Below are positions 612 through 21,408 of a stretch of DNA of 37,340 bases, one piece after another (position 1 is the stretch's first letter; every line of letters begins with the position of its first letter). Below the pieces are notes generated by a model. That model did no database searches. It saw only the letters and a program-made list of their open reading frames with translations, and was not told where the DNA came from. The stretch is from a virus. A program made the translations under genes and the position numbers. The stretch lies in UHGV virus genome UHGV-1403306; one strand, given 5' to 3'.

Positions 612-3600
612 CTATTTCTTGTTAACCAAATTAACTTTATTTTGATTTCTTGCTTCTTTTTGTTTAACAATTGTGTATATTTTATCTCCAACAAGTTCGG
701 TATGAACTTCAAATACTGGTTCTTGTAATTGACTAGTTTTAACTTCTTCGCTTAATTCATTCATAGATGAAGAAAGCTTATTAGAGACATTTCTAGTATC
801 CGCCGTTAAAACAGAATTTGCTTCATATTCTTGTGATTTTATTGATGTTGCATATGCTAACGCTTGTCTATCAACTTGCTTTTGCATTCTTGACATGCCG
901 TTAACTAAACCCATCCCAACAAATCCCCCAATTTTATCGGTAACACGTGATGGCGAATGAATATCCAGTGCTTTCCTCATAGTACGGGCTACGTTACTAG
1001 CTATATTACTAGCAGTTGCGTAAATAGAACCCGCAGAATTTGCTAAACCATTTCTCAAACCTATACCTGCATTATAACCGATATTAGAAAGCGTTGAAGT
1101 CAATCCACTAAAAATGGAGTTTATTCGACTCGTGGAAGAAATCATTATGCTTGTCATTGAATTCATGCTATTCATAACGGCACTATTCATTCTATTCATA
1201 CCATTTTGAACATTATTTGCCATTGAATTGAATGCTTGAGTATTTGCAGAATTTATCCTACTGAATCCCCCGTTAATAGTACTAACAACACTATTCATTG
1301 TACCTGTCACATTTGACTTCATTGAGTTCATGGACTTCGTTACATTGTTTGACATCTGTGAAATGTCTTGCGAAGATTTATTATTAATATTTTGTGTATT
1401 ATTTGATACATTTTGAAACATTTGGTTAGAGGCACTAGAAGCTTGTTGGGTAGCTTGATTCATATTAGTGCCAACAGCATTCGCAGTACCAGAGGTAGCC
1501 TGATTAACATTAGATAAAATACTATTATAGTCACTAGAGACACCATTTAGTGCACTATTAGACTCTTTTGTTGCAGCATTTGCTGCTTTAGTTGAATTTG
1601 AACTTACTACACTATTAAGGTTATTCATCGTTCCTGATACATTTGTAGCTAGTAGATTATAGTTTGAAGACGTACCATCTTTAGCTGCATTAGAAGCATT
1701 AATTGCATTGTTTGAGGCTTGTGTACTCAAATTACCTACATTTAAATTCATGTTGTTCATTGAATTAGCAACATTTGAACTTGCTTGTCCATAAGATGAA
1801 CTCAAATTTGTAGCAGTAGTAGTAGCATCATTTGATACTTTTGAGCTTGTTTCAGATGACTTACCCGTTATTGTGTTCCATAAATTTGAAAACCCATTTT
1901 TAATACCATCCCAAGCTCCTTTTAAAACATTAGGAATAGCCTCTAAAATAGCACCAGCAAGAGCTTTAATAATATCCCACCCAGCAGCAATAATTTGTGG
2001 TAGCATCTGGATTACCGTGCCAATCAACGTCATAATGATTTGTATTCCCGAAGAAACGATGTTTGGCAAATTCTCAACAATACCATTAACCAAGGCCATA
2101 ATAATTTGCATTGCTGCGTCTAGAATCATAGGTAAGTTTTCTACAATAAAATTACATAATGAATTTATAATTTGGACTGCTCCATCTAAAAGCTTAGGTA
2201 TATTATCCATTAAACCTTGGATTAATGTTAGAATCGCGTTTAATGCGACAGGTAAAATTTGTGGCAATAATTGAGTAAGACCATCAATTAAATTCTGAAG
2301 AATCTGAATACCCGTATCTATAATTTGAGGTAGATTTTCCATTACAGAATTAACAAACGAATCCAAGATTTTTTTCACTGATTCAACTATTTTTGGTATA
2401 TTTTGAATGATTCCTTTAACTATATTCAGCAAAAGTTCCATTCCCATTTTTAATAATTCAGGCAATGCACTTGCTATGGAGCTCAAAAATGAAGTAATAA
2501 CTTCTAACGCTGAATTTATAAGAGACGGTGCATTTTGCCCCACACCTTGTACAAGACTTCCAATAATTTTCATACCTGAATCTATGATTATTGGAATCAT
2601 TGTAGATATAGCACTAGCTAGTTTAGCAATTAATTCAGTGCCACTTTGCATAAGTTGTGGCAATTGTGAGGTAATACCATTAACAAGATTAGTTATAATT
2701 TCTGGGCCTTTTGTAGTTACCGTCTTTAATAATTTGTCAATTTGTGCTCCAAATTGATTATTGATTAGTCCCAATCCAGCTATAACTAATCCTAATATAG
2801 CTGCAGGTCCTATAGCTGATAAAGCTACTTGCATGATAGTTCCCATTGCAGAAGTCATGCCACCTAAGGCTCCCATACCAACAGAACTTGCCATGGATAA
2901 GCTACTTCCTATTTTAGGAATTAAACCTATCAAACCTGTTAATCCAGAACTAAACATTTTGAACGGTCCGCTTATCATACCTCCTAATATTCCTGAAAAT
3001 GCTGAAAATCCGCTTGAAAGAGATGCAATTGCAGGAACTGCTTTACTGACTACTAGCGCGCTTCCCAATACAGCAGCTATAGGTAATAGTCCTTGAATAG
3101 CACCTTTTAAAGCATCAATACTTTTTTTAGACAAATCAGTGCCATTGATAAAATGGTTTAAAACATTTGTAGCAACATCTACTGCTGCAGATATTTTATC
3201 CATATTAAAATCACCAATTTTATCTGTTAATTTGCTGACTGCTTCTATCCCTACTTGAGACAGTTGATCAAAAGCCGGTTGTAATTTATTGGTGATTGTT
3301 TCCTTTAAGCCATCCATTGCTTGACCGACAGTTTTATATTCGGTAGCCATTTTTGAAAACGTTTCGTTTGTACCAGTTTTAGTTATTGCATCAAAGAAAT
3401 CTTGAGTAGCAATTTTCCCATCTTGAACCGCAGTCACCATTTCAGAGGTTGACATGCCCATAGTTTTAGCAACAGCTGCAATACCCGCAGGAGTTTGTTC
3501 TAACATCAATTTAAAATCTTGCCATTGAACCATCGGTTTAGCAGCCATTTGTGTAGCTTGTTGACTTAGCGTTGTCATCGCTTGTGTCGGATTTTCAGCT

Positions 3601-4526
3601 GCCGCAGCTAATCCACCAAAACCCATAACCAATTTGTCAGTATTTTTTATTCCTACAGCTGCTAATTGACTATATGTAGTAGCCATTTCAGAAGCAGAAT
3701 AAATTGTTTTAGTGGCAAAATCCTGTAGCTCTTTTTTTACAGATGCTATTTCATCTTTTCCTTTACCAATATTTTCCATATTAGCATTGAAAGTTTTCCA
3801 TGTAGCTGAGCCTTGGTTCAAGTCACCTATAATTTCTTTAAATCCGCTAGAAAGTGCTGATATGCCTTTTTGAGCTACCGCGTATGCTGCACCAATACCT
3901 ATGATTTTTTTTACTAAATCATCTGTTGCTGATCCTGCTTTATTGGTTCCTGAAACCATCTTATTTAGTGCGTTAGACGCTTTTGATCCAGCACTATTAA
4001 ACGCTCCAGTTAATTTCGAACCTATATTAGTTCCCAAAGTAGTAATTTTTGAACTTATTTCACTAGCACTTGATCCAACAGCTTTAAATGCACTTTTAAA
4101 AGGCTGTGGTATTTTAGAAGCAACTGTCGAAAATGCTTTACCAATTATTGATGTTTGTTGTGATAGTCCAGCTCCCATTTCTTTAGCTGAACTTACAACC
4201 GCATTCTTGGCAGCTGACATCCCTTTTTTAATTGGTTGTGGTATTTTTTCGCCGATTCCAGCAATTACACGTTGAATACCGCCGCCAGCTTTTTCAAATA
4301 ATGCAACAGTTTGCGGTAAAACTTTAGAAACGCTATTTAGCATCGGATCAGCTAACTTACTCATAATTTGACCGACTTTTTGAGTAGTACTCATAGATCC
4401 GCTTTGTAATATGTTAGCAACATCATTCATAGTTTTATTCGCTATAGATGAAACTTTATTCATTGCAGCATTATATTGCGACAAATCAGCACCGATAACA
4501 GCGTTAATAGCACCTTCAAAAGCCAT
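612..4526 (-). CDS. tmp: Tail tape measure protein (TP901-family core region, tandem ~20-aa IxxNLPxI repeats, Asn/Ser-rich segment, C-terminal HSPSR motif)
   Basis: 1304-aa ORF with RBS GGAGGTGAGTAAATG. It contains the TP901-type TMP core (ASEMATTYSQLAAVG...QWQDFKLMLEQ). Hydrophobic stretches and position after the G/T chaperones fit a TMP. Confidence 0.9.
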   Translation of the reverse strand: MAFEGAINAVIGADLSQYNAAMNKVSSIANKTMNDVANILQSGSMSTTQKVGQIMSKLADPMLNSVSKVLPQTVALFEKAGGGIQRVIAGIGEKIPQPIKKGMSAAKNAVVSSAKEMGAGLSQQTSIIGKAFSTVASKIPQPFKSAFKAVGSSASEISSKITTLGTNIGSKLTGAFNSAGSKASNALNKMVSGTNKAGSATDDLVKKIIGIGAAYAVAQKGISALSSGFKEIIGDLNQGSATWKTFNANMENIGKGKDEIASVKKELQDFATKTIYSASEMATTYSQLAAVGIKNTDKLVMGFGGLAAAAENPTQAMTTLSQQATQMAAKPMVQWQDFKLMLEQTPAGIAAVAKTMGMSTSEMVTAVQDGKIATQDFFDAITKTGTNETFSKMATEYKTVGQAMDGLKETITNKLQPAFDQLSQVGIEAVSKLTDKIGDFNMDKISAAVDVATNVLNHFINGTDLSKKSIDALKGAIQGLLPIAAVLGSALVVSKAVPAIASLSSGFSAFSGILGGMISGPFKMFSSGLTGLIGLIPKIGSSLSMASSVGMGALGGMTSAMGTIMQVALSAIGPAAILGLVIAGLGLINNQFGAQIDKLLKTVTTKGPEIITNLVNGITSQLPQLMQSGTELIAKLASAISTMIPIIIDSGMKIIGSLVQGVGQNAPSLINSALEVITSFLSSIASALPELLKMGMELLLNIVKGIIQNIPKIVESVKKILDSFVNSVMENLPQIIDTGIQILQNLIDGLTQLLPQILPVALNAILTLIQGLMDNIPKLLDGAVQIINSLCNFIVENLPMILDAAMQIIMALVNGIVENLPNIVSSGIQIIMTLIGTVIQMLPQIIAAGWDIIKALAGAILEAIPNVLKGAWDGIKNGFSNLWNTITGKSSETSSKVSNDATTTATNLSSSYGQASSNVANSMNNMNLNVGNLSTQASNNAINASNAAKDGTSSNYNLLATNVSGTMNNLNSVVSSNSTKAANAATKESNSALNGVSSDYNSILSNVNQATSGTANAVGTNMNQATQQASSASNQMFQNVSNNTQNINNKSSQDISQMSNNVTKSMNSMKSNVTGTMNSVVSTINGGFSRINSANTQAFNSMANNVQNGMNRMNSAVMNSMNSMTSIMISSTSRINSIFSGLTSTLSNIGYNAGIGLRNGLANSAGSIYATASNIASNVARTMRKALDIHSPSRVTDKIGGFVGMGLVNGMSRMQKQVDRQALAYATSIKSQEYEANSVLTADTRNVSNKLSSSMNELSEEVKTSQLQEPVFEVHTELVGDKIYTIVKQKEARNQNKVNLVNKK

Positions 4527-4530
4527 TTAC

Positions 4531-4845
4531 TCACCTCCACTTTTTATTTTTGAAATAGTTCATCACTTCTTTTGCCTTTTCCACACGATTGTATGTTTCT
4601 TCCTTTTCGTTTGTCGTAGCAAAAATAGATTTTATTTTGCGTTCAATTTTTTCTTTATCAAATACTTTTTTTATTTTTGGCTTCTTTGCATTCAAAACAT
4701 ATCTTAAAGTAAACGCATAATGGGCTTTTTGTTCTTGTTCATCTACACTTTTCAAAGCTAATCCTTCTAAAATCGCTTCTAACTCCCACTTATAACAAGA
4801 CATAATTAATGGAATATCCACTAATCCTTGCCTAGCACAATTCAC
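4531..4845 (-). CDS. Tail assembly chaperone gpT-like extension ORF, in the -1 frame relative to the upstream gpG-like ORF (candidate G-T frameshift product)
   Basis: 104-aa ORF directly follows and overlaps the stop of 4845..5321 in the -1 frame. It lies immediately upstream of TMP, the canonical siphovirus G/GT arrangement. No slippery heptamer was positively identified. Confidence 0.4.
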   Translation of the reverse strand: MNCARQGLVDIPLIMSCYKWELEAILEGLALKSVDEQEQKAHYAFTLRYVLNAKKPKIKKVFDKEKIERKIKSIFATTNEKEETYNRVEKAKEVMNYFKNKKWR

Positions 4846-5321
4846 TATGAGATTTCTTTCTTGATTCGATCTGCTAAATCTTTGACCGCTTTTGCTTGTT
4901 GCTCTGGATTTTGAATCTCTTCGGTCGGTTGTTGGCTCTTCAAGTAATCTGCTGCTTTCTCTAGATTGTTGATATATTTCTTCAATTTCTTCACGAAAAA
5001 ACCAGAATCCAACATTTCTTGTTTAAGTGTTTCAAATACCATGCTGTATCCTTCTTCTTCATCTTCAAAAGTTTCCACAAAATCCTGAACAGACTTCGCA
5101 ATGTCTTCATCTGTTACTTTATCTTTTGAAGCCAGCTTGATAATATCAAAAAGCGCATCATCATCTTCTTCTAGAACTTTTACAAAAAGAACACCTGCGC
5201 CATCATTTTGTGAGTTACCTTGAGCATCTTTTGTACCTAGCTTTTTATTAGCTTTAAATAACATTCCATAATTAAACTTAATTTCTAATTGTTTCTCTTT
5301 TAATTTAACTGCAAATGACAT
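4845..5321 (-). CDS. Tail assembly chaperone (gpG-like), acidic
   Basis: 158-aa acidic ORF with strong RBS AGGAGGAAATAATATATG. It is the first of two ORFs between MTP and TMP, the conserved chaperone position. Confidence 0.5.
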   Translation of the reverse strand: MSFAVKLKEKQLEIKFNYGMLFKANKKLGTKDAQGNSQNDGAGVLFVKVLEEDDDALFDIIKLASKDKVTDEDIAKSVQDFVETFEDEEEGYSMVFETLKQEMLDSGFFVKKLKKYINNLEKAADYLKSQQPTEEIQNPEQQAKAVKDLADRIKKEIS

Positions 5322-6208
5322 ATATTATTTCCTCCTGTTTTAGCCATTTTTATAGCTTCTATATATTTTATAGTTGCTTTATCTTTAGCCATATTATCTA
5401 ACCTATCTTCAAAAGGACTAGTATTAACATATTTTCCTTTAAAAAATAAATCTTTATCTTTTTCAGTTACACCTGCATTGTGTAATATTTTTGTTTCGTA
5501 CCATTTATTGACTGGATCAGTTGGCCAGCAAAAATTTAATTCTTCATCGATTTTCGGGCCTATGTTAAAAACTAACATATTCCATAATTGAGCCCACATT
5601 TCCGCAGTCCAAATTTGAATATTACTGTCTTGGTAATTTAAATACTTGAATAAACGTATTGAATCACAATAAACCTTTTCCCAATATTCTTTTTTCGGAT
5701 TGGTTATAACCCATTGAGCCCCACCTGAATTACTATTAATTGTTTCAAGTGATTCAAGATTGACACCAACTATACCGGACATCTCCTGCAATATTTTGTC
5801 TCCATTTTTGCAGCTACGTATATAATCAATATTTAAATAGCCATTACAATCTGAACAGTACCAAACATCCTCTTTCAAATTAAACTTGTTGAAATCAATC
5901 AGTTCTCTAAAAATCACATCTGAGTCCATATAGAAGTATGTTTCTTTTTCTCTACTAGGGTCTTCTTTTAAATATTGCCACCACAAATAAGGCTTAATCG
6001 AAGGGATATAGCTTTTATCCCTTCGATTATCCTCATAAGTATGCACTGTTACACCATACTCTTCTTTAAAATACACAGGAATTGATGTATCATGTTTCGA
6101 AAAAAGCAATACGATGTCTTCAATTCCTACTTTTTTTAAATTAGTAAGACACACTTCTAATTCCCATTTAAATCTTTGAATCGCAGGCTGACATAATAGG
6201 TATTTCAT
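5300..6208 (-). CDS. Extra ORF between the major tail protein and the chaperones: Cys/Trp-rich enzyme-like protein with a hhhDxDhhh motif (YFYMDSDVIF); candidate GT-A-type glycosyltransferase
   Basis: 302-aa ORF with a Rossmann-like N-terminus (YLLC...IVLLFSKHD), a DSD motif near residues 92-94, and ~10 Trp and many Cys. It breaks the usual MTP-G-T-TMP synteny. Its neighbours carry poly-Thr tails. Confidence 0.35.
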   Translation of the reverse strand: MKYLLCQPAIQRFKWELEVCLTNLKKVGIEDIVLLFSKHDTSIPVYFKEEYGVTVHTYEDNRRDKSYIPSIKPYLWWQYLKEDPSREKETYFYMDSDVIFRELIDFNKFNLKEDVWYCSDCNGYLNIDYIRSCKNGDKILQEMSGIVGVNLESLETINSNSGGAQWVITNPKKEYWEKVYCDSIRLFKYLNYQDSNIQIWTAEMWAQLWNMLVFNIGPKIDEELNFCWPTDPVNKWYETKILHNAGVTEKDKDLFFKGKYVNTSPFEDRLDNMAKDKATIKYIEAIKMAKTGGNNICHLQLN

Positions 6209-6213
6209 TTTAA

Positions 6214-6843
6214 TTACCTTTGAGTTGTCGTTGTGGTTGTTGTAGGTCTTGTAGTGGTTGTTGTTGTTCCATTATCAATATTGCTATAATCACCAGTAGT
6301 TTCTCCTGGGCGTTGGAATTGATACAAACTTTCGACCATTGCAACGTCTTCATCTGACAAAGGAAATGTTCCGTCTTGCAATTTCCCTACAATATTTAAT
6401 GTGTAGCTAATTTCAACTAAATCTTCTCCTTCAGCATATTCTAATTCGTCAGGGATACCATAACCAAATTTAGCTGGATAAGCTTTAGTTCCGGCTCCTT
6501 CTTCCGTTGCAAGAGTATCGTCAACAACAACTCGCCATACTTTAACAGAATGTCCATTCTTTTTGGCTTCTTCAATAACATCAATTGATTCATCATCGGG
6601 AGCAAAGTATTGTGTCAATTCAATACTATGTTCATCAGTTGACTTTAAAATTATACGCCCCATTTTTGTTTGTTCATCGATGTTGTCACCGCCAATAGTT
6701 GTAGTACCATCTGTTTGAAATGCAGGCAAGAGAGCTGGAGATCCAATTGGTACTTGTGTGCTTTGAATAAAGTACCAAACACGGTTTCCTCTAATAGGTG
6801 TTCCTTGGAATTTTTTAATTCTGTTATTTACTGTTTCTGGCAT
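6214..6843 (-). CDS. Major tail protein with a C-terminal poly-Thr tail (…GTTTTTTRPTTTTTTTQR)
   Basis: 209-aa ORF placed after the head-tail joining genes and before the chaperones and TMP. The C-terminal 19 aa are TTTTTTRPTTTTTTTQR, coded at 6217-6273. Confidence 0.6.
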   Translation of the reverse strand: MPETVNNRIKKFQGTPIRGNRVWYFIQSTQVPIGSPALLPAFQTDGTTTIGGDNIDEQTKMGRIILKSTDEHSIELTQYFAPDDESIDVIEEAKKNGHSVKVWRVVVDDTLATEEGAGTKAYPAKFGYGIPDELEYAEGEDLVEISYTLNIVGKLQDGTFPLSDEDVAMVESLYQFQRPGETTGDYSNIDNGTTTTTTRPTTTTTTTQR

Positions 6844-6854
6844 ATGAATTCCTC

Positions 6855-7226
6855 CTAAAAAATATAATCAGATATTTTAAACACGACATGATAAACTTCT
6901 CTACCAATAGTGTTATCAGGTCTAATATTTGTACTAATTTTCTTTGTTCGTAGAGCAGATTTGGTTTGATATATTACATCTTCGACTTTTGCTCTACTAT
7001 TTACTGGATAAAATAAATCTATTTGTAAATCAGTGTTCACTATTGCAGCACCAAATTTTGCACTTTTTGTATCATCGTCAAAGTGATTGCCAATAACATA
7101 AAAAGGCTCAATAATTTCTGGCCCTGGAAGTTTATAGTAAATAGGGATTCCCGTTTTATTTAATTTTTCAGAAATCTCTTTTAAAAATTTAGTATTTGGG
7201 GCATGTTCCACTTCATTTACCTCCAA
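6855..7226 (-). CDS. Tail terminator / tail completion protein (positional call)
   Basis: 123-aa ORF immediately upstream of MTP in the head-tail joining block. Confidence 0.35.
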   Translation of the reverse strand: MEVNEVEHAPNTKFLKEISEKLNKTGIPIYYKLPGPEIIEPFYVIGNHFDDDTKSAKFGAAIVNTDLQIDLFYPVNSRAKVEDVIYQTKSALRTKKISTNIRPDNTIGREVYHVVFKISDYIF

Positions 7227-7560
7227 CTATCTTTTGTAAATTCTTCATTAATGTTGGATATTCTTCTTTAACAGCAGGATACAAGAAAGGTTGAGCAGCC
7301 ATGAAACGTGTTCCTTCTTCGATGAAAATTGAATAGTTAGCAGGCGAGTCTATACTTACACACATTCTGTACATCATATATGAATATATATTGTTTCTTA
7401 ACCATCCAGTATCTACCGGTGCTAATTGTTTAGCCCTTTTCTCAACTCTAAATCCTGATTTTTGCAATTCTTTATGAATAGACTGTTCTGTTTTTTCTTT
7501 TTGCTTCTTAACACCCCGAACAAATGCCTTCAGTCCAACAATTTGAATAACTTTGCTCAT
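7213..7560 (-). CDS. HK97 gp10-like head-tail joining protein
   Basis: 115-aa ORF with a …LAPVDTGWLRNNIYSYMM… motif typical of the HK97 gp10 family. Overlapping stop/start with its neighbours. Confidence 0.5.
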   Translation of the reverse strand: MSKVIQIVGLKAFVRGVKKQKEKTEQSIHKELQKSGFRVEKRAKQLAPVDTGWLRNNIYSYMMYRMCVSIDSPANYSIFIEEGTRFMAAQPFLYPAVKEEYPTLMKNLQKIVGGK

Positions 7561-7835
7561 GTTAATATTACAACTGTTGAATTGCGATGAAACTTAACAT
7601 CAAAAATATTTTTAGAAATACCGTCTATATTAATTTCATCAAAGAAGAAATATCCCTGTAAATGAACTTTAAGTGCATTCTTATTGTATTTTCCAAAGAA
7701 AGCTATTTGTTCATCAAAAGAAATATTATGGATACTACAAGGTACTGTTCTAACTTCTTTTGAAATGGCTTCTTCTCCTAAATACCCTTCAGTAGTAATA
7801 TTCTTAACTATTTTACAACGATGGTTATAAATCAT
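7557..7835 (-). CDS. Head closure / head-tail adaptor protein
   Basis: 92-aa ORF between the gp6-like connector and the gp10-like protein. Assigned by synteny. Confidence 0.4.
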   Translation of the reverse strand: MIYNHRCKIVKNITTEGYLGEEAISKEVRTVPCSIHNISFDEQIAFFGKYNKNALKVHLQGYFFFDEINIDGISKNIFDVKFHRNSTVVILT

Positions 7836-8215
7836 GGTAAAAACCTCGCAATTCCTTTACCAGCTCTAATTTCAGGCTTGGTATACTCGTCTAAAATGTT
7901 CAAATATTCATCCAAATAACTCTTTTCCCAAGTAAAAGAACGACCTTCTTCGCTGTCAGAACTTGTCCCTTCACTATTTCTTTTGTTGAAACGTTTAATT
8001 GATACATCTCTCAATATATAGTTCAAACTATCAGGTACAGCATCGTACTTATCTGTTCCATTTTTTTGAGCATATTGATTCAAGACAGATAAAATACGTT
8101 CTTCACTGTCTTGAATCACTAATGTTAACAATTCATCTTGGAGTTCGTCAGAAATGCCTAACAAAACTTTGATTTCCTTCAGACGATCACCGTATTCTTT
8201 TTCTGTCTTTCCCAT
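7832..8215 (-). CDS. Head-tail connector protein (gp6-like / Phage_connect_1)
   Basis: 127-aa ORF directly after the capsid gene. The …LGISDELQDELLTLVIQDSEERILSVLNQYA… pattern is typical of gp6-like connectors. Confidence 0.5.
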   Translation of the reverse strand: MGKTEKEYGDRLKEIKVLLGISDELQDELLTLVIQDSEERILSVLNQYAQKNGTDKYDAVPDSLNYILRDVSIKRFNKRNSEGTSSDSEEGRSFTWEKSYLDEYLNILDEYTKPEIRAGKGIARFLP

Positions 8216-8229
8216 ATCAGAAACCTACT

Positions 8230-9207
8230 TTACCCTTGTGTCGTAGTAGTCGTTGTTGTTGGTTTTGTCGTTGTCGTTGTTGTTTCACCACTAATTGTTG
8301 CTTCTACTACACCTTCTGGAATTTCAGGGAATAATGTTAAAGCATTCATAAACAATGATTCAAATGTTGCATTTCGTAGAGTACGTCCACGAGTCGCTGA
8401 AATAAAACCAGTTTCATCAACAAAGTCCACAAAAATATCACCTAAATCAGATGCCTTCATATCCAAGTATGCTAATACGATATTGTCAACGGCGGTAGAA
8501 TAAACCTTTCCTTCTGGGATTGCGTTTAATACAATAACGTTTGTTGCACCTAGAAAGTTTTTCAATAAGGTCATACCAAATACATTAGATGCATCTGCTA
8601 AGACTTTTGTATCCCCTAAGTAGGTTGCTACATCCATAGGATTTACAAAGGAAACAAATTGAGCGCCATCAAACTCTTCGAATGTACTTAGTTTCCCCCA
8701 TGATTGTGCTAACGCTTTTTGTAACCCTTCAGCTGGAATTTTAGTAGGAGCTGTCCCTAAAAAATTAACAAATTGCGTTTTAATTCCACCTTGAATTTGG
8801 CGCAATAATTTTTCGTCAGATTGATCAATCGCAATAGATGCTCCATGACGAGCAATTGCTTCAGCAGTTACTGCACGGCGCCATTTATTAAATGTTACTG
8901 TAAATGATTTTCCTTTAGCTCGAGTTACTTTGGATAAAGGAATATCATCGCCTTCCGCAACATTTCCATCTTTTAATGACGTTGTCCATTTGTACATTTG
9001 AATTTTCATATCTTTAGATAAAGGTTCTAACCGTGTTACACCTAATAACTCTAATAATTCTTTGATGCCTTTCTCAAAACGATTCACAAAATCAATGGAT
9101 TTAATTTCTCCTAAATCGTCCATTTTTGTAAGGTCTGGTTCTGCCGCAAATAGTTGCAAATCCATTTTTAATAAACGTTCTTTATTAGTTTTTGACATAT
9201 TTTTCAT
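8230..9207 (-). CDS. Major capsid protein with a C-terminal poly-Thr tail (…GETTTTTTKPTTTTTTTQG)
   Basis: 325-aa ORF after the scaffold gene. The N-terminus LKMDLQLFAAEP resembles that of the scaffold. The C-terminal TTTTTTKPTTTTTTTQG is coded at 8233-8289. Confidence 0.75.
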   Translation of the reverse strand: MKNMSKTNKERLLKMDLQLFAAEPDLTKMDDLGEIKSIDFVNRFEKGIKELLELLGVTRLEPLSKDMKIQMYKWTTSLKDGNVAEGDDIPLSKVTRAKGKSFTVTFNKWRRAVTAEAIARHGASIAIDQSDEKLLRQIQGGIKTQFVNFLGTAPTKIPAEGLQKALAQSWGKLSTFEEFDGAQFVSFVNPMDVATYLGDTKVLADASNVFGMTLLKNFLGATNVIVLNAIPEGKVYSTAVDNIVLAYLDMKASDLGDIFVDFVDETGFISATRGRTLRNATFESLFMNALTLFPEIPEGVVEATISGETTTTTTKPTTTTTTTQG

Positions 9208-9219
9208 AAGTTATTCCTC

Positions 9220-9879
9220 CTAGAATAAATCTCTATTTTGAGCAATCATTCTTTGACGCTCTTTAGAGTCTTTAATTTGCATAATTTCAGCTTTAGTCAT
9301 TTGACCACCGTTATTGCCTACTCGTGTCTTATTTTTGCTAGCAAGGCGCTCGTTCACCTTTGCTTCTACAGCTTTATCCCATTCATCACGAAATGCCTTT
9401 ACATCTTCCAGAATTTCTTCAGCTGTTTCTCCGGTAATTCTATGGGCAAAATCAGAAGGCATACCTTCGGCTTTTAACTGATTTCCTTTTTCAACGAACA
9501 GTTGCTGTTTTTGGAACTCAGCCTTTTGTTTTTCAAACTCTTCTTTTTCTTTATCAAGAATAGCTTGTTGTCGCTCTTTTTCTGAAAGTTTCGCTAAACG
9601 AGCGGCTTCATTCTTTTGTTCTTCTAAATCTTTTTGCCAACGTGATTTTTTACTTTTGATAATCTCATCAACATCTTTATCGTCTTTTAATCCGAACTTT
9701 TCTTTAATTGAAGTCAGCTGTTCTTCATCTAGTTCATCGAGATTCAATGATTTTTGTTCATCTTCATTTTGTTGCTGATGATTATCTCCTCCACCTGAAC
9801 TATTTCCATTATCTGCAGCAAAAAATTGTAATTGCATTGGTAATAAATTACATGTTTTCATTTGACTTTCTCCTTCCAT
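9220..9879 (-). CDS. Capsid scaffolding protein; likely true start is the Met at 9861 (MKTCNLLPMQLQFFAADNG)
   Basis: Coiled-coil, charged ORF with the N-terminal MQLQFFA motif typical of Gram-positive phage scaffolds. RBS GGAAGGAG lies 8 nt before the internal ATG at 9861. Confidence 0.65.
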   Translation of the reverse strand: MEGESQMKTCNLLPMQLQFFAADNGNSSGGGDNHQQQNEDEQKSLNLDELDEEQLTSIKEKFGLKDDKDVDEIIKSKKSRWQKDLEEQKNEAARLAKLSEKERQQAILDKEKEEFEKQKAEFQKQQLFVEKGNQLKAEGMPSDFAHRITGETAEEILEDVKAFRDEWDKAVEAKVNERLASKNKTRVGNNGGQMTKAEIMQIKDSKERQRMIAQNRDLF

Positions 9880-9957: not shown

Positions 9958-10305
9958 TTAAAACGACTCAACTTCTAATTCTTTGTAAATGTTTAATAAT
10001 TTAGGAAACTGAATAGCAATCCAATCAACGATTTCTTCATTTCTTGGCCATTCTGCGTTATTGTCTAATCCCGATTCAAATAAAATAGCATGGATAATTT
10101 CATGGCGTATGGTTCTAGCTTCATATATATCAATTTCTTGAAAATTATCTGGATCTCCGTTATCTAACTGATTAATAAAAATTTCTTTGGTCGTAAAATC
10201 AGTGACACCGTCTGCACCGCGCATAAAAGGCTTGTCTGCTTCTGTTGTCTCTTTATAAATTGTGTATTCTACGCCTAATACATTAACTTTTGCTTTTTCT
10301 TTCAT
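9958..10305 (-). CDS. Hypothetical protein with an HExxH motif (RHEIIHAILFESG) in the head module
   Basis: 115-aa ORF between the Mu-F-like and scaffold genes. A zincin-like HEIIH motif is the only recognisable feature. Confidence 0.4.
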   Translation of the reverse strand: MKEKAKVNVLGVEYTIYKETTEADKPFMRGADGVTDFTTKEIFINQLDNGDPDNFQEIDIYEARTIRHEIIHAILFESGLDNNAEWPRNEEIVDWIAIQFPKLLNIYKELEVESF

Positions 10306-18857: not shown

Positions 18858-19298
18858 TTACAACATCAAATCCCCAAGAAAAGCTTTTTTCATTTCCTTA
18901 TAGATGGTTAGTTCATTTTCTGCTGTCGCTATTTCATCCGTGATATGATCCATCATCCGAACAAAGGCTTTTTGGGTTTCTCGATTGAATAACTCTATTG
19001 GAAAATTACCAATTTCCTTTTCTTGTATATTGATACCTGTTGCATACTTTGCAATAAATTTGTCTACATTTCTTTGTAGAATTAAATTGAAATACTTAGG
19101 CTCGATGCCATTTTGAGGAATAATCACAACTTCCTTTGTTGGTACTTCCCTAGGATATTCTAGAAAATCTATTTGGCCTTTCGTAGCCGATATTTGAATG
19201 GTTGATGTTCCAGCAGGATAAATGTATCCTGCTTTTGCCCTTCCAAATTCTGCAACATCTTCTAATTTGACACGTTCAAAGTTATCAAAATCAATCAT
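18858..19298 (-). CDS. Type I R-M specificity-subunit-like protein with a single target-recognition domain (half-HsdS)
   Basis: 146 aa. The N-terminus …VKLEDVAEFGRAKAGYIYPAGTSTIQISATKGQ matches the conserved start of HsdS TRDs. Its start overlaps the MTase stop (ATGA). Confidence 0.55.
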   Translation of the reverse strand: MIDFDNFERVKLEDVAEFGRAKAGYIYPAGTSTIQISATKGQIDFLEYPREVPTKEVVIIPQNGIEPKYFNLILQRNVDKFIAKYATGINIQEKEIGNFPIELFNRETQKAFVRMMDHITDEIATAENELTIYKEMKKAFLGDLML

Positions 19299-20611
19299 AA
19301 TAGGCTCAATTGCTCCCCTTCCGTCGGTTCTGCTCTCTTTATTGGTCGTTTTGGTTTTTGACTGTCCTTATACCCAACATGTTCCGAAAAGAATGAAGCA
19401 AACTCTTTTATTTGTCTATCAGCTTCTGGCGTAGTCCCAACTAAATCATTCATCATTTTGGCTAGTTCGATATTATTCTTTGCAATCTCTTGCTCTGTTT
19501 GTTTCATTTCTGCCATTATTTCAGATAGTGGCTTTACAGGTTCTGGTTCAAAAGTATCAACATAACGAGGTATGTTTAGATTAAAGTCATTTTCTTTCAA
19601 TTCTTCGATAGTAACTACACTGCTAAACTTATCAACTGCTTTTCTTGATTGGAACACTTCTAAAATTTTAGCAACATGTTCGTCTTCTAAAACATTCCAA
19701 GCCTTTTCCTTTTTAAATTCCTTGCTGGCATCAATGAATAAAATATCTTTATTCAATCGGTTCTTTTTTAAAACTAGAAGAACCGTCGGAATATCAGTAT
19801 TCATAAATGCTTTTGCAGGTAGTCCAATAACAGCATCTAGCAGATTCTTTTCAATAAGTTTCTTGCGAATCTTTTCTTCTGCAGCACCTCGAAACAAAAC
19901 GCCGTGCGGTAAAATAATAGACATTATGCCATTATCTTCCAATTGGTGTACACCCTGTAGTAGAAATGCGTAATCTGATTTTGATTTAGGAGCTAAGACA
20001 CCATAATCCGAAAAACGCTCTTGCTCTAAATACTCTTTTAATGGATTCCAAGGGAGCGAGTAAGGTGGATTCATGATGACCGTTTCCGATTTATTCGTTG
20101 GTACTTCGTCAACAATTTCAATAGAGCTAAACTCAGTTGATTTTGTTAATTTGTATATTGTTTTAAACTCACGACTTAATGAATCACCATGCAGAACTAC
20201 GGCATTTATATTTCTGATTGCTAAATTAAACAAGAGAAATGGCAATGCACGATCTGAAAACTCTTCACAATGAAACTGTGCATCAGGATTTTCTGCATAT
20301 CGTTTAATTGTTAAACCGCCAGTTCCTGCACAGATGTCTGCATTGGAACGAGTTGCCCCAAGAACTCCACTGGCAACCCGAATGATTCCATCTGGTGTAA
20401 AATCTTGCTTCTTGCCTTTTCGGTCTGAATGTTCCGCTTGAAAATATTCTGTGAACCAATCAAATGATAGGTCTTGTTCTTCTTTTAAAAAGTTGGTAAA
20501 TAGTAGTTCTCGTTCGCTTGGACTACTTAATATTTCAATCAATTTATAGGAAGCATGAAAGCTTTCATCAACACCTAGCAGTTCATTTATTTTTTCTGTT
20601 GTTAGTTTCAT
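19295..20611 (-). CDS. N6-adenine DNA methyltransferase, HsdM-like (motif I DICAGTGG, motif IV NPPY)
   Basis: 438 aa. AdoMet motif DICAGTGGL and catalytic MNPPYS are present. It is translationally coupled to the HsdS-like ORF. No R subunit is in the replicon. Confidence 0.85.
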   Translation of the reverse strand: MKLTTEKINELLGVDESFHASYKLIEILSSPSERELLFTNFLKEEQDLSFDWFTEYFQAEHSDRKGKKQDFTPDGIIRVASGVLGATRSNADICAGTGGLTIKRYAENPDAQFHCEEFSDRALPFLLFNLAIRNINAVVLHGDSLSREFKTIYKLTKSTEFSSIEIVDEVPTNKSETVIMNPPYSLPWNPLKEYLEQERFSDYGVLAPKSKSDYAFLLQGVHQLEDNGIMSIILPHGVLFRGAAEEKIRKKLIEKNLLDAVIGLPAKAFMNTDIPTVLLVLKKNRLNKDILFIDASKEFKKEKAWNVLEDEHVAKILEVFQSRKAVDKFSSVVTIEELKENDFNLNIPRYVDTFEPEPVKPLSEIMAEMKQTEQEIAKNNIELAKMMNDLVGTTPEADRQIKEFASFFSEHVGYKDSQKPKRPIKRAEPTEGEQLSLL

Positions 20612-20663
20612 CGTTTTTAAGGAGCAAAAAGCTTTTTAATGCGGCCGCAAACCTCCGCTCCTT
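20612..20663 (-). promoter_or_regulatory. Conserved hairpin leader of the N6-MTase gene (7-bp IR AAGGAGC/GCTCCTT, 31-nt loop with GCGGCCGC and AAAAAGCTTTTT palindromes)
   Basis: The inverted repeat 20619-20625 / 20657-20663 ends exactly 7 nt from the ATG. A near-identical element precedes the C5-MTase gene. Confidence 0.5.
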
Positions 20664-20664
20664 T

Positions 20665-21408
20665 CTATTTATTTTTCTCTAAAACTTTTTTAAATATGTC
20701 ATCCACTAATTTTTCTGGAATATTTGATCGTTCATTATAGCTTTTGGAAAAATTGCCCCAGGCAATTTCTTGTTTAATAACTTTATTTTTCAATCCCAAA
20801 TGAATATTACTGGCAAATTTCGTAGGCTTCTGTAATGGATAATCATAATTGTTATACTTGGTTAAATTTTTAAATGGTAGTTTAAAATTCAAGACATCTT
20901 CAATATATTCCCAAATTTTACCATTAGCCGGGTTCTCAATAATGAAATATCTGGGTTGGTACTTTTTTATAATTTTTATAGTATTAAAAACCGTTAACTC
21001 TCCATTCACTCTTTTTAAAAATTGTCGTTCATAAACATAATTAGTATCTTCGTAATCTTTTGTGGTTCTTATAGTAAACGGGCTTGGTAATATCTGTGGC
21101 GCAAATAAATTATCTGTTACATCTTCTCTTTTCCAACATGCATTCCCATTTTTCATTGCACTAGCTACTGACCAGCTTTCACATGGTGGGCTTGCAATGA
21201 TTAAATCTGGTTTTGGTAATTTGTCTAAAACTTTGAATAATTTATTATCATTAAACATATAAGAATAGTCCGCTAAATTCAGATGAATAAAATGGTCATT
21301 CTTATTTTCAATATCCAAACCTATGCTGTATATTTCTATATCTTCAAACTTTTGTGCAGAACGTTTATAACATCCGTTCCCACTATCAAATAGTGCCCAT
21401 ACTATCAT
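20665..21408 (-). CDS. Compact DNA (cytosine-5)-methyltransferase-like protein (motif I FDSGNG, PC motif SPPCE, ENV-like IIENP)
   Basis: 247 aa. Motifs I, IV (PCE in place of PCQ) and VI are recognisable in the right order. There is no obvious TRD or C-terminal motifs IX-X. Confidence 0.55.
   Translation of the reverse strand: MIVWALFDSGNGCYKRSAQKFEDIEIYSIGLDIENKNDHFIHLNLADYSYMFNDNKLFKVLDKLPKPDLIIASPPCESWSVASAMKNGNACWKREDVTDNLFAPQILPSPFTIRTTKDYEDTNYVYERQFLKRVNGELTVFNTIKIIKKYQPRYFIIENPANGKIWEYIEDVLNFKLPFKNLTKYNNYDYPLQKPTKFASNIHLGLKNKVIKQEIAWGNFSKSYNERSNIPEKLVDDIFKKVLEKNK

Follow-up and report, generated by a model that had tools for sequence, protein, structure and literature searches.

The only precedent that we have found for the system proposed in this paper is mycobacteriophage Che8, whose glycans reportedly sit on C-terminal extensions of its capsid and tail-tube subunits. 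In that phage, the capsid is glycosylated by enzymes that the phage itself encodes (Freeman et al. 2023, Cell Host Microbe 31:1216, cited through PMC13445384, PMC11256854, and PMC10568470); as the citing papers summarize it, the O-glycosylation of virion proteins in Che8 and its relatives yields a glycan shield that alters antibody recognition. Here, we describe one stretch of DNA, the virus genome UHGV-1403306 (37,340 nucleotides; this whole stretch is what we call the window), in which the major capsid protein (MCP) and the major tail, or tail-tube, protein (MTP) end in nearly the same 17-residue poly-threonine tag and in which the MTP gene adjoins a gene for a predicted glycosyltransferase (GT) of 302 amino acids (aa). 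What could such tags be for, and what might the enzyme next to them be doing? We consider it quite likely that tag and transferase together form a portable cassette that O-glycosylates the surface of the virion.

The likeness to Che8 lies in two features: the window phage also has a phage-encoded (predicted) GT, and its MCP and MTP carry C-terminal threonine extensions, 17 aa long, that are absent from GT-less homologues of 57–62% identity. There are also differences. The host belongs to the Actinobacteria there and to the Firmicutes here; in Che8-like phages, the GT genes are remote from the structural genes, toward the right end of the genome, whereas the window has a single GT gene within the operon, beside its presumed substrate; the enzyme is of another family, with 0 Mycobacterium phages among the 77 phage records that tblastn finds to carry it; and the window phage has what looks like an explicit, portable acceptor tag of poly-threonine. 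A full-text search of the literature turned up no glycosylated virions of Firmicutes phages, no poly-threonine phage tails, and no report of glycosylation in the gene-carrying phages named below, which agrees with the initial annotation of this DNA (a model's reading of the sequence), according to which nothing of the kind had been described for Firmicutes phages. One study saw no glycostain signal in ten other phages, which are not shown to carry the cassette.

Other described systems share parts of the arrangement. The enzymes of family GT8 (GlyE, LgtC, glycogenin, and AgtA) have a fold like that of the window enzyme, but the latter has no PF01501 match and shares 10–13% identity with them at a TM-score of ~0.5. 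The serine-rich repeat adhesins of streptococci and staphylococci, to whose pathway GlyE belongs, are likewise O-glycosylated in the cytoplasm on tracts of hydroxy amino acids; they differ in being huge serine-rich repeats exported by the accessory Sec system, whereas the window has a 17-aa threonine tag on virion proteins assembled in the cytoplasm. Initiation in the serine-rich repeat pathway needs a pair of GT-B enzymes, GtfA/GtfB, and none of the window proteins that were scanned by Pfam resembles these. The PBCV-1 A64R/giant-virus capsid system is that of a eukaryotic virus (a chlorovirus) with many GTs and no terminal tag, and the glycans of the PBCV-1 capsid are atypical N-linked ones on asparagines of a folded protein. 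Finally, the immunoglobulin (Ig)-like and FN3 decorations (SPP1 gp17.1*, lambda gpV, and phi29 gp8) occupy the same C-terminal position on MCP or MTP as dispensable surface decorations, but these are folded domains presumed to bind carbohydrate, and the tag would itself bear it.

The Poly-Threonine Tags

The MCP ends in TTTTTTKPTTTTTTTQG and the MTP in TTTTTTRPTTTTTTTQR; that is, T6-[K/R]-P-T7-Q-[G/R] followed by the stop closes both proteins exactly as the initial annotation had described it, preceded by ISGE in the one and by DNG in the other (Table 1). That such a tail is unique to these two proteins, also claimed there, holds in a scan for Ser/Thr runs of at least five residues in all six frames of the 37,340 bases (open reading frames, or ORFs, of more than 100 codons), which yields four runs in total, all of them within the MCP and MTP tags. 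At a threonine content of 6.2% in the 9,870 residues of the long minus-strand ORFs, ~0.0006 T6 runs are expected; because four T6/T7 runs are present, a chance origin is excluded.

Could one tag simply be a copy of the other? The two tags are identical at 43 of 54 nucleotides (nt) because the AC of threonine codons forces them to be alike. The third base is the same in 6 of the 15 codons that encode an equal residue (the codon usage of the phage for threonine leads one to expect a fraction of ~0.31), and the 60 nt upstream of the two tags agree at 19 positions. With third bases shared at this level and unrelated sequence upstream, the likeness of the tags must therefore be maintained at the level of the protein; we rejected recent DNA duplication or gene conversion of the window tag for the same two reasons, and the earlier statement that the tag is not a simple duplication stands.

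Bases 5000–9500 of the window are 100% identical to Enterococcus phage 1_EfsPF36 (CP124927) and 93% identical to the temperate Enterococcus faecalis phages phiFL1A/B/C and phiFL2A/B (genus Phifelvirus), and the window phage is a temperate E. faecalis siphophage of this phiFL group. In phiFL1A, the MCP ends in T5-KP-T5-KP-T7-QG and the MTP in T5-S-T6-SS-T7-QASSK; between these two phages, the kind of tail is conserved, and its length is not.

Gene and Tails Together

Does the enzyme gene keep company with such tails in other phages? In IMG/VR, 541 contigs encode a relative of the enzyme, and we inspected the best 80 of these 541 loci, 76 of which had a delimitable ORF. At all 76, one or two virion proteins on the same strand end in tails of T5 or longer, and the GT gene lies directly downstream of one tagged gene. 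Prophage loci from 48 different bacterial species were examined in the same way: one to three proteins ended in poly-threonine at 47 of them, and the opposite strand, as a control, gave 1 ORF across all 48. The host genera are Lentibacillus, Oceanobacillus, Gracilibacillus, Halobacillus, Virgibacillus, Staphylococcus, Salinicoccus, Enterococcus, Lacticaseibacillus, Lactiplantibacillus, Latilactobacillus, Lactococcus, Listeria, Trichococcus, Sporolactobacillus, Clostridium, and Anaerorhabdus, together with one Saccharimonadales metagenome-assembled genome. Among isolated phages, a tblastn search of 50,697 phage records with the enzyme found the gene in 77, and each of the six that we inspected (Enterococcus VPE25, Lactococcus 1706 and bIL285, Staphylococcus SA2, Clostridium phiCTP1, and the Lactobacillus myophage Bacchae) has a poly-threonine tail on its MTP and often on head proteins too.

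The tagged proteins themselves are diverse. They include MCPs of at least six families (phrog_544, 10, 840, 29, and 247 and the protease-MCP fusion 3270), MTPs of at least five (phrog_238, 117, 88, 2645, and 14018/341), small FN3-plus-(T7-x-x-P)n proteins, a connector-region protein (phrog_749), and phrog_909. The enzyme gene, which in the window follows the MTP gene, directly follows some tagged gene in other phages as well, be it that of the MCP, of the MTP, or of a small FN3-plus-poly-threonine protein, and this varying order means that the association is not the inheritance of one ancestral operon.

Several proteins at these loci deserve mention in their own right. In prophages of Bacillaceae and in Lactobacillus plantarum myophages, the gene that immediately precedes that of the GT encodes a small protein (113–170 aa) with an N-terminal FN3/Ig-like domain and, behind it, mucin-like (T7-x-x-P)n repeats; in Bacchae, gp069 is annotated as “major tail protein.” In Staphylococcus phage SA2 (L133 11117..11930), an annotated ORF of 87 aa with long Thr/Ser tracts runs in another frame across the 3' end of the MTP gene, which suggests a programmed frameshift lengthening the tail-tube protein by a threonine-rich tail, and the “assembly protease” ORF of the same phage has three T7 runs. 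Both the capsid and the tail-tube protein of Lactococcus phage 1706 end in T9-10-HHD, and its orf3 (L132 964..1368), annotated as a holin, has a T7 run near its C-terminus.

We also went in the reverse direction, from tails to genes. The initial annotation had proposed a search for other phages whose MCP and MTP end alike, and a narrow scan (T7-Q-x-TAA) recovers almost only the phage group of the window. It includes 11 stretches that have the MTP tag and no GT, all of which end before the position at which the GT gene is expected. A broad scan (T7-x-x-TAA; all figures are for the matches listed) finds many poly-threonine tails in environmental phages, on MCP-like proteins, adaptors, and MTPs. 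No fewer than 12 of these loci encode a distant relative of the enzyme (E 1e-45 to 1e-155), always on the strand that bears the tag; the two are 20–850 nt apart at 11 loci and 2 kb apart at the twelfth. Because distant members of the family thus lie within 1 kb of poly-threonine ORFs in environmental phages, the proposed system may reach well beyond the Firmicutes. At one environmental locus (L255 4640..8486, minus strand), three proteins in a row are tagged, an MCP-like protein (phrog_1623), a head-tail adaptor (phrog_477), and an MTP (phrog_807), and its 13 kb of sequence contain no member of the GT family. Poly-threonine tails occur also at L314, L271, and L342, and at these environmental loci they reach T13; in many other environmental tails, Cys-x-Pro-T7 is followed by two hydrophobic residues.

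The two or three residues after the threonine tract tend to be alike within a phage and different between phages, with such pairs as QA/QA, SHA/SHA, KKA/KKA, HHD/HHD, TSA/TSA, SGAGA/SGAGA, and EAQ/EAQ, although the window tags themselves end differently (QG on the MCP vs. QR on the MTP). Of 50 within-genome pairs of tags, 26 agree in all of the last three residues, vs. 5.8% of between-genome pairs, whereas synonymous third positions are alike in 40.5% within genomes vs. 30% between them; at a few loci, such as L224 (11/11) and L243 (7/8), the tags do look like recent copies. Because the last residues match within genomes while synonymous sites are little more alike, the matched ends look like protein-level concerted evolution, in which a common partner, rather than recent DNA copying, would have done the selecting. 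The co-variation of these residues between the substrates of one phage further suggests that they form part of the signal by which the enzyme recognizes its tags.

Relatives Without the Gene

If tag and gene belong together, what has become of the tags in phages without the gene? Two Streptococcus prophages, Javan47 (MCP 62% and MTP 60% identical to those of the window) and 315.6 (61% and 57%), have the same gene order and neither the gene nor the tags. The Javan47 MCP ends in EATIEADKEVPGAVPGG where the window tag would begin, its MTP ends in DYDNIQKKEVSGSLPGAVPGISSERH, and the 315.6 MTP ends in DYDNITK. In these GT-less prophages, MCP and MTP have another common short C-terminal motif at the tag site (in Javan47, EVPGAVPGG on the MCP and SLPGAVPGISSERH on the MTP; in 315.6, AAVPGIGG on the MCP), which may be another shared tail.

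The same coupling appears at other scales. Phages of Streptococcus, Bacillus, and Pediococcus make up 0 of the 77 GT-positive records vs. 58 of the 76 MTP-positive ones. Coetzeevirus, a single genus, is itself divided: R3.3 combines the gene with both tags, and Lactobacillus phiJL-1 and Bassarid have neither. When relatives of the R3.3 MTP in IMG/VR were counted at loci where both MCP and MTP are covered, both proteins were tagged at 29 of 29 GT-positive loci, vs. a tag at 1 of 16 GT-negative loci.

Several GT-negative relatives have a Big_2 Ig-like domain at the C-terminus of the MTP, in the same position as the tags. Big_2-type Ig-like domains are external decorations in other phages. Their presence there in GT-less relatives argues that the C-termini of MCP and MTP are sites of external decoration. 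In L150 (2429..3547 and 5001..5651), a Coetzeevirus-like recombinant and the one tagged locus among the 16 that are GT-negative, an MCP-Big_2 fusion replaces both the MCP tail and the GT gene; decoration by an Ig domain and decoration by tag plus GT appear to be interchangeable modules.

The Neighboring Enzyme

The gene for the 302-aa protein is inserted between the MTP gene and a tail assembly chaperone gene, within the late structural operon; in GT-less relatives, the chaperone gene directly follows the MTP gene. Its ATG lies 5 nt after the MTP stop and behind an AAAGG ribosome-binding-like site inside the last MTP codons, and its translation is probably coupled to that of the MTP gene.

By sequence, the protein belongs to a family of its own. 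It has no Pfam or NCBIfam match (E ≤ 0.01 to 0.1) and no phmmer match among the sequences of the PDB, and a profile built from 40 homologues finds no GT among those sequences. Its more than 1,000 close homologues are all unnamed or named “prophage pi2 protein 34,” and the family (phrog_4417) comprises 865 clusters at 50% identity, 495 of them with E ≤ 1e-30. The fold points somewhere more definite. An AlphaFold2 model made from the 40 homologues (pLDDT 94.4, pTM 0.91) was compared by Foldseek both with the PDB and with the viral models of BFVD, and both times, the matches were GT8, GT24, and GT6, all retaining GT-A classes, with GlyE as the closest structural neighbor. The fold is thus of the GT-A, Rossmann-like kind, closest to GT8 structures, whereas PF01501 (Glyco_transf_8) is not matched; we rejected membership in GT8/PF01501 by sequence, with no family model matched and no PDB GT reached by the profile, and the protein is a separate family with a GT8-like fold rather than a demonstrated member of GT8.

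D95-S-D97 stands directly after the strand formed by residues 90–93, placed as the DxD motif of GT-A enzymes is. D95, D97, H243, and K257 are invariant across the 40 homologues, and D95, D97, H243, N244, G246, and K257 are invariant in multidomain relatives of 31–38% identity. There is no transmembrane segment (the maximum 19-residue Kyte–Doolittle mean is 1.15). Distant multidomain homologues (P0157, P0179, P0175, P0163, and P0252) are fused to a GT2, Glyco_transf_7C, PqqD, radical-SAM/SPASM, or methyltransferase domain, and PqqD is a recognition domain for peptides (ribosomally synthesized and post-translationally modified peptides). These fusions fit a sugar-transferring, peptide-directed enzyme that builds glycans on peptides; those with PqqD and radical-SAM domains also hint at roles in peptide modification outside phages.

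Genome Context

The late operon lies on the minus strand in the arrangement standard for siphophages: portal, Mu-F-like minor head protein, scaffold, MCP, connector/head-tail joining, MTP, the 302-aa ORF, chaperones, and tape measure. The identity of the two proposed substrates rests on more than position. The MCP gene stands between the scaffold gene and the head-tail connector gene and has a profile match (Table 1), and the MTP matches TIGR02126 (phgtail_TP901_1) at E 1e-33 and 116.2 bits, above the curated cutoff of 37.

Table 1. Coordinates of the tags, of the late genes around them, and of proteins at comparison loci (prefixed L); other positions are those of the window
Feature	Position	Strand	Basis or remark
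MCP C-terminal tag, T6-K-P-T7-Q-G, 17 aa	8233..8283	-	read from sequence; stop codon 8230..8232
MTP C-terminal tag, T6-R-P-T7-Q-R, 17 aa	6217..6267	-	read from sequence; stop codon 6214..6216
MCP gene, 325 aa, proposed substrate 1	8230..9207	-	phrog_544 major head protein, E 6e-70
MTP (tail-tube) gene, 209 aa, proposed substrate 2	6214..6843	-	TIGR02126, PF06199, phrog_238
302-aa ORF, predicted soluble GT-A (GT8-like, retaining-type) glycosyltransferase	5300..6208	-	phrog_4417, “unknown function”
Scaffold gene	9220..9879	-	PF14265
Head-tail connector gene	7832..8215	-	PF05135
Tail assembly chaperone gene	4845..5321	-	PF12363 Phage_TAC_12, E 3e-10
Second tail assembly chaperone gene	4531..4845	-	
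Tape measure protein gene	612..4526	-	
Small FN3/Ig-plus-poly-threonine proteins	L003 7302..7718; L007 7642..8001; L204-L207; L134 14057..14996		L134, Lactobacillus phage Bacchae gp068/gp069
Streptococcus prophage C-terminal motif proteins	L137 3701..4597 and 5968..6600; L138 3699..4586		

Some further features of the window were seen in passing. The N-terminus of the MCP (9130..9207, minus strand; LKMDLQLFAAEPD) and that of the scaffold (9800..9879, minus strand; LPMQLQFFAADNG) have an LQ(L/F)FA motif in common. It resembles the sequence at which the host protease Prp cuts ribosomal protein L27, as well as the capsid and scaffold proteins of staphylococcal phage 80alpha. From the portal gene to the scaffold gene, there is no evident gene for a prohead protease; between the Mu-F-like head gene and the scaffold, a 115-aa ORF (9958..10305, minus strand) has a metalloprotease-like HEIIH (HExxH) motif and no Pfam match. 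Elsewhere (19295..21408, minus strand), there is an N6-adenine DNA methyltransferase (PF02384, 438 aa), and an adjoining ORF matches a C5-cytosine methylase profile in a fragment only.

Discussion

How would the system work? The tag would be a short, disordered C-terminal threonine appendage on the two most abundant proteins of the virion. Late in infection, the enzyme would take a host nucleotide-sugar, most likely a UDP-hexose or UDP-N-acetylhexosamine, with D95-x-D97 and H243 holding the divalent cation and the diphosphate, and would act as a sugar transferase on the tags. Each tag has 13 threonines, and many of their hydroxyls would receive the sugar, probably alpha-linked. This would happen in the cytoplasm, before or during assembly; with the C-termini of both proteins pointing outward, as we propose, capsid and tail tube would end up clad in a dense, mucin-like brush of glycans. 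The tags, the fold and conserved motifs of the enzyme, the place of its gene in the operon, and the near-perfect joint presence and absence of gene and tags are observations; from them, we infer catalytic activity and threonine as the acceptor, and the donor sugar, its anomeric configuration, and the outward exposure of the tags are likewise proposals. The benefit to the phage might lie in shielding from antibodies or proteases, in colloidal stability, or in adhesion to mucus or to cell-surface glycans.

The initial annotation had argued from the tags that MCP and MTP share a post-translational fate, most plausibly O-glycosylation, and the adjoining GT-like gene, along with the co-occurrence and co-absence of gene and tags, supports this. 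Tails present as a common feature without any transferase gene, which it had named as speaking for a role unrelated to modification, are not what the window phage and its relatives have. On balance, we lean toward a still broader view, that of a mobile, self-contained cassette of Firmicutes phages in which one small, unannotated GT-A transferase serves a poly-threonine tag of ~10–20 residues that can be attached to any capsid, tail-tube, adaptor, or decoration protein. If we read the distribution correctly, as we are somewhat inclined to believe, hundreds of phages, the dairy phages 1706 and bIL285 and Lactobacillus phages among them, would have a mucin-like glycan coat.

A number of our results weigh against glycosylation of the tags by this enzyme and should be set out together. 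At 23 of the 76 IMG/VR loci, a single protein has a T5+ tail, and at the one of these that we inspected (L023), the MTP tail has decayed to VVTTTATQSQ; at another locus (L220), the gene stands beside a weak TTPATTAG tail only. The counts of co-occurrence include related sequences and are not counts of phylogenetically independent events. The recombinant L150, a stretch of 10.6 kb, retains a tag without a GT gene, its MTP still ending in T6-VAP-T5-SHA, and among the matches listed in the broad scan, at least 11 loci with at least 3 kb of flank on each side show no member of the enzyme family in the fragments. The enzyme itself raises further points. That it is a GT is a prediction drawn from fold and motifs, without sequence membership in a known GT family, and the model meets known GTs at a TM-score of ~0.5 and 10–13% identity. 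GlyE, its neighbor in structure, extends an existing O-GlcNAc and does not act on bare Ser/Thr, and only one GT is present among the scanned window proteins; for no second GT, and for no nucleotide-sugar synthesis genes or flippases, is there a match among the 30 window proteins scanned by Pfam. Because GlyE is an extender and the scanned proteins include a single GT, direct O-glycosylation of the protein is something that we infer.

One could suppose instead that the tails are unmodified, hydrophilic, disordered surface spacers and that the enzyme acts on something else altogether, such as wall teichoic acid, Epa polysaccharide (through lysogenic conversion or superinfection exclusion), or phage DNA. 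Prophage GTs that modify cell-wall polymers are, after all, common. The environmental tails in stretches without a homologue of the enzyme and L150, with its tag and no gene, would suit such spacers, and VPE25, which carries a homologue, glucosylates its DNA (PMC4999554). However, the gene directly follows a tagged one within the late structural operon and does not belong to a lysogeny or moron region, and the enzyme has no membrane segment. It is carried also by phages described or classified as lytic, namely VPE25, Lactococcus phage 1706 (virulent), and the Herelleviridae myophage Bacchae. These are our reasons for rejecting a GT of lysogenic conversion (Gtr/TarP type). As for DNA, VPE25, a lytic siphophage, has its DNA glucosylation ascribed to a separate T4-like beta-glucosyltransferase (PMC4999554); genes of a hydroxymethylcytosine pathway were not seen among the scanned window proteins, and the fold is GT-A and not GT-B, and we rejected a T4-type DNA glucosyltransferase on these grounds. 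Above all, spacers and an enzyme busy elsewhere leave unexplained why gene and tags are gained and lost together (29 of 29 vs. 1 of 16 related loci, with at least 11 families of structural proteins involved). We therefore regard this explanation as improbable.

Rather less probable still is some other modification or a transient tail: glycosylation or phosphorylation by the host, clipping during maturation, or nothing more than slippage-prone, ACA-rich DNA. Tail length does vary between phages that are 93% identical, the ORF overlapping the MTP 3' end in SA2 suggests frameshifting there, and the LQ(L/F)FA motif shared by MCP and scaffold makes proteolytic processing likely, at least at the N-terminus. 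Yet neither window tag is followed by an extended ORF in an alternative frame, the next gene beginning at once after the stop; host enzymes do not explain a dependence on a phage gene; and tags that were removed would not be expected to retain matched terminal residues under selection at the protein level. The least probable of the alternatives, and one that we think very unlikely, is that a protein with a GT-like fold is no transferase but a chaperone of assembly or solubility that binds the tails (or that the tails are an assembly motif), for although the gene adjoins one for a tail assembly chaperone, the protein belongs to no GT family by sequence, and binding would also yield a strict pairing of tag and protein, its DxD, H243, and K257 are invariant over 31–100% identity in the manner of a metal/nucleotide-sugar active site, its relatives are fused to second GT domains and a methyltransferase as if for glycan building, and close relatives assemble the same MCP and MTP folds with neither tag nor protein.

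What would it mean if the tags are indeed glycosylated by the neighboring enzyme? Glycosylated phage particles, so far treated as a rarity of mycobacteriophages, would be common in phages of lactic acid bacteria, enterococci, staphylococci, listeriae, and bacilli; the scale can be gauged from the 541 contigs of viruses, the 77 records of isolated phages, and the 865 clusters (50% identity) of the enzyme. The “hypothetical protein” family phrog_4417 would gain a function, as a GT family for which there is at present no Pfam or NCBIfam model, and a soluble enzyme with an encodable tag of 17 residues would be a tool for glycosylating proteins in the bacterial cytoplasm. A glycan coat would change antigenicity, neutralization by serum, and clearance, all of which matter for phage therapy, where the candidates affected would include the Enterococcus phages VPE25 and 9183 and SA2-like phages of Staphylococcus. 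It may also affect, in the gut as in dairy fermentations, how stable these phages are, how readily they aggregate, and how they adhere to mucus or to the surfaces of bacteria.

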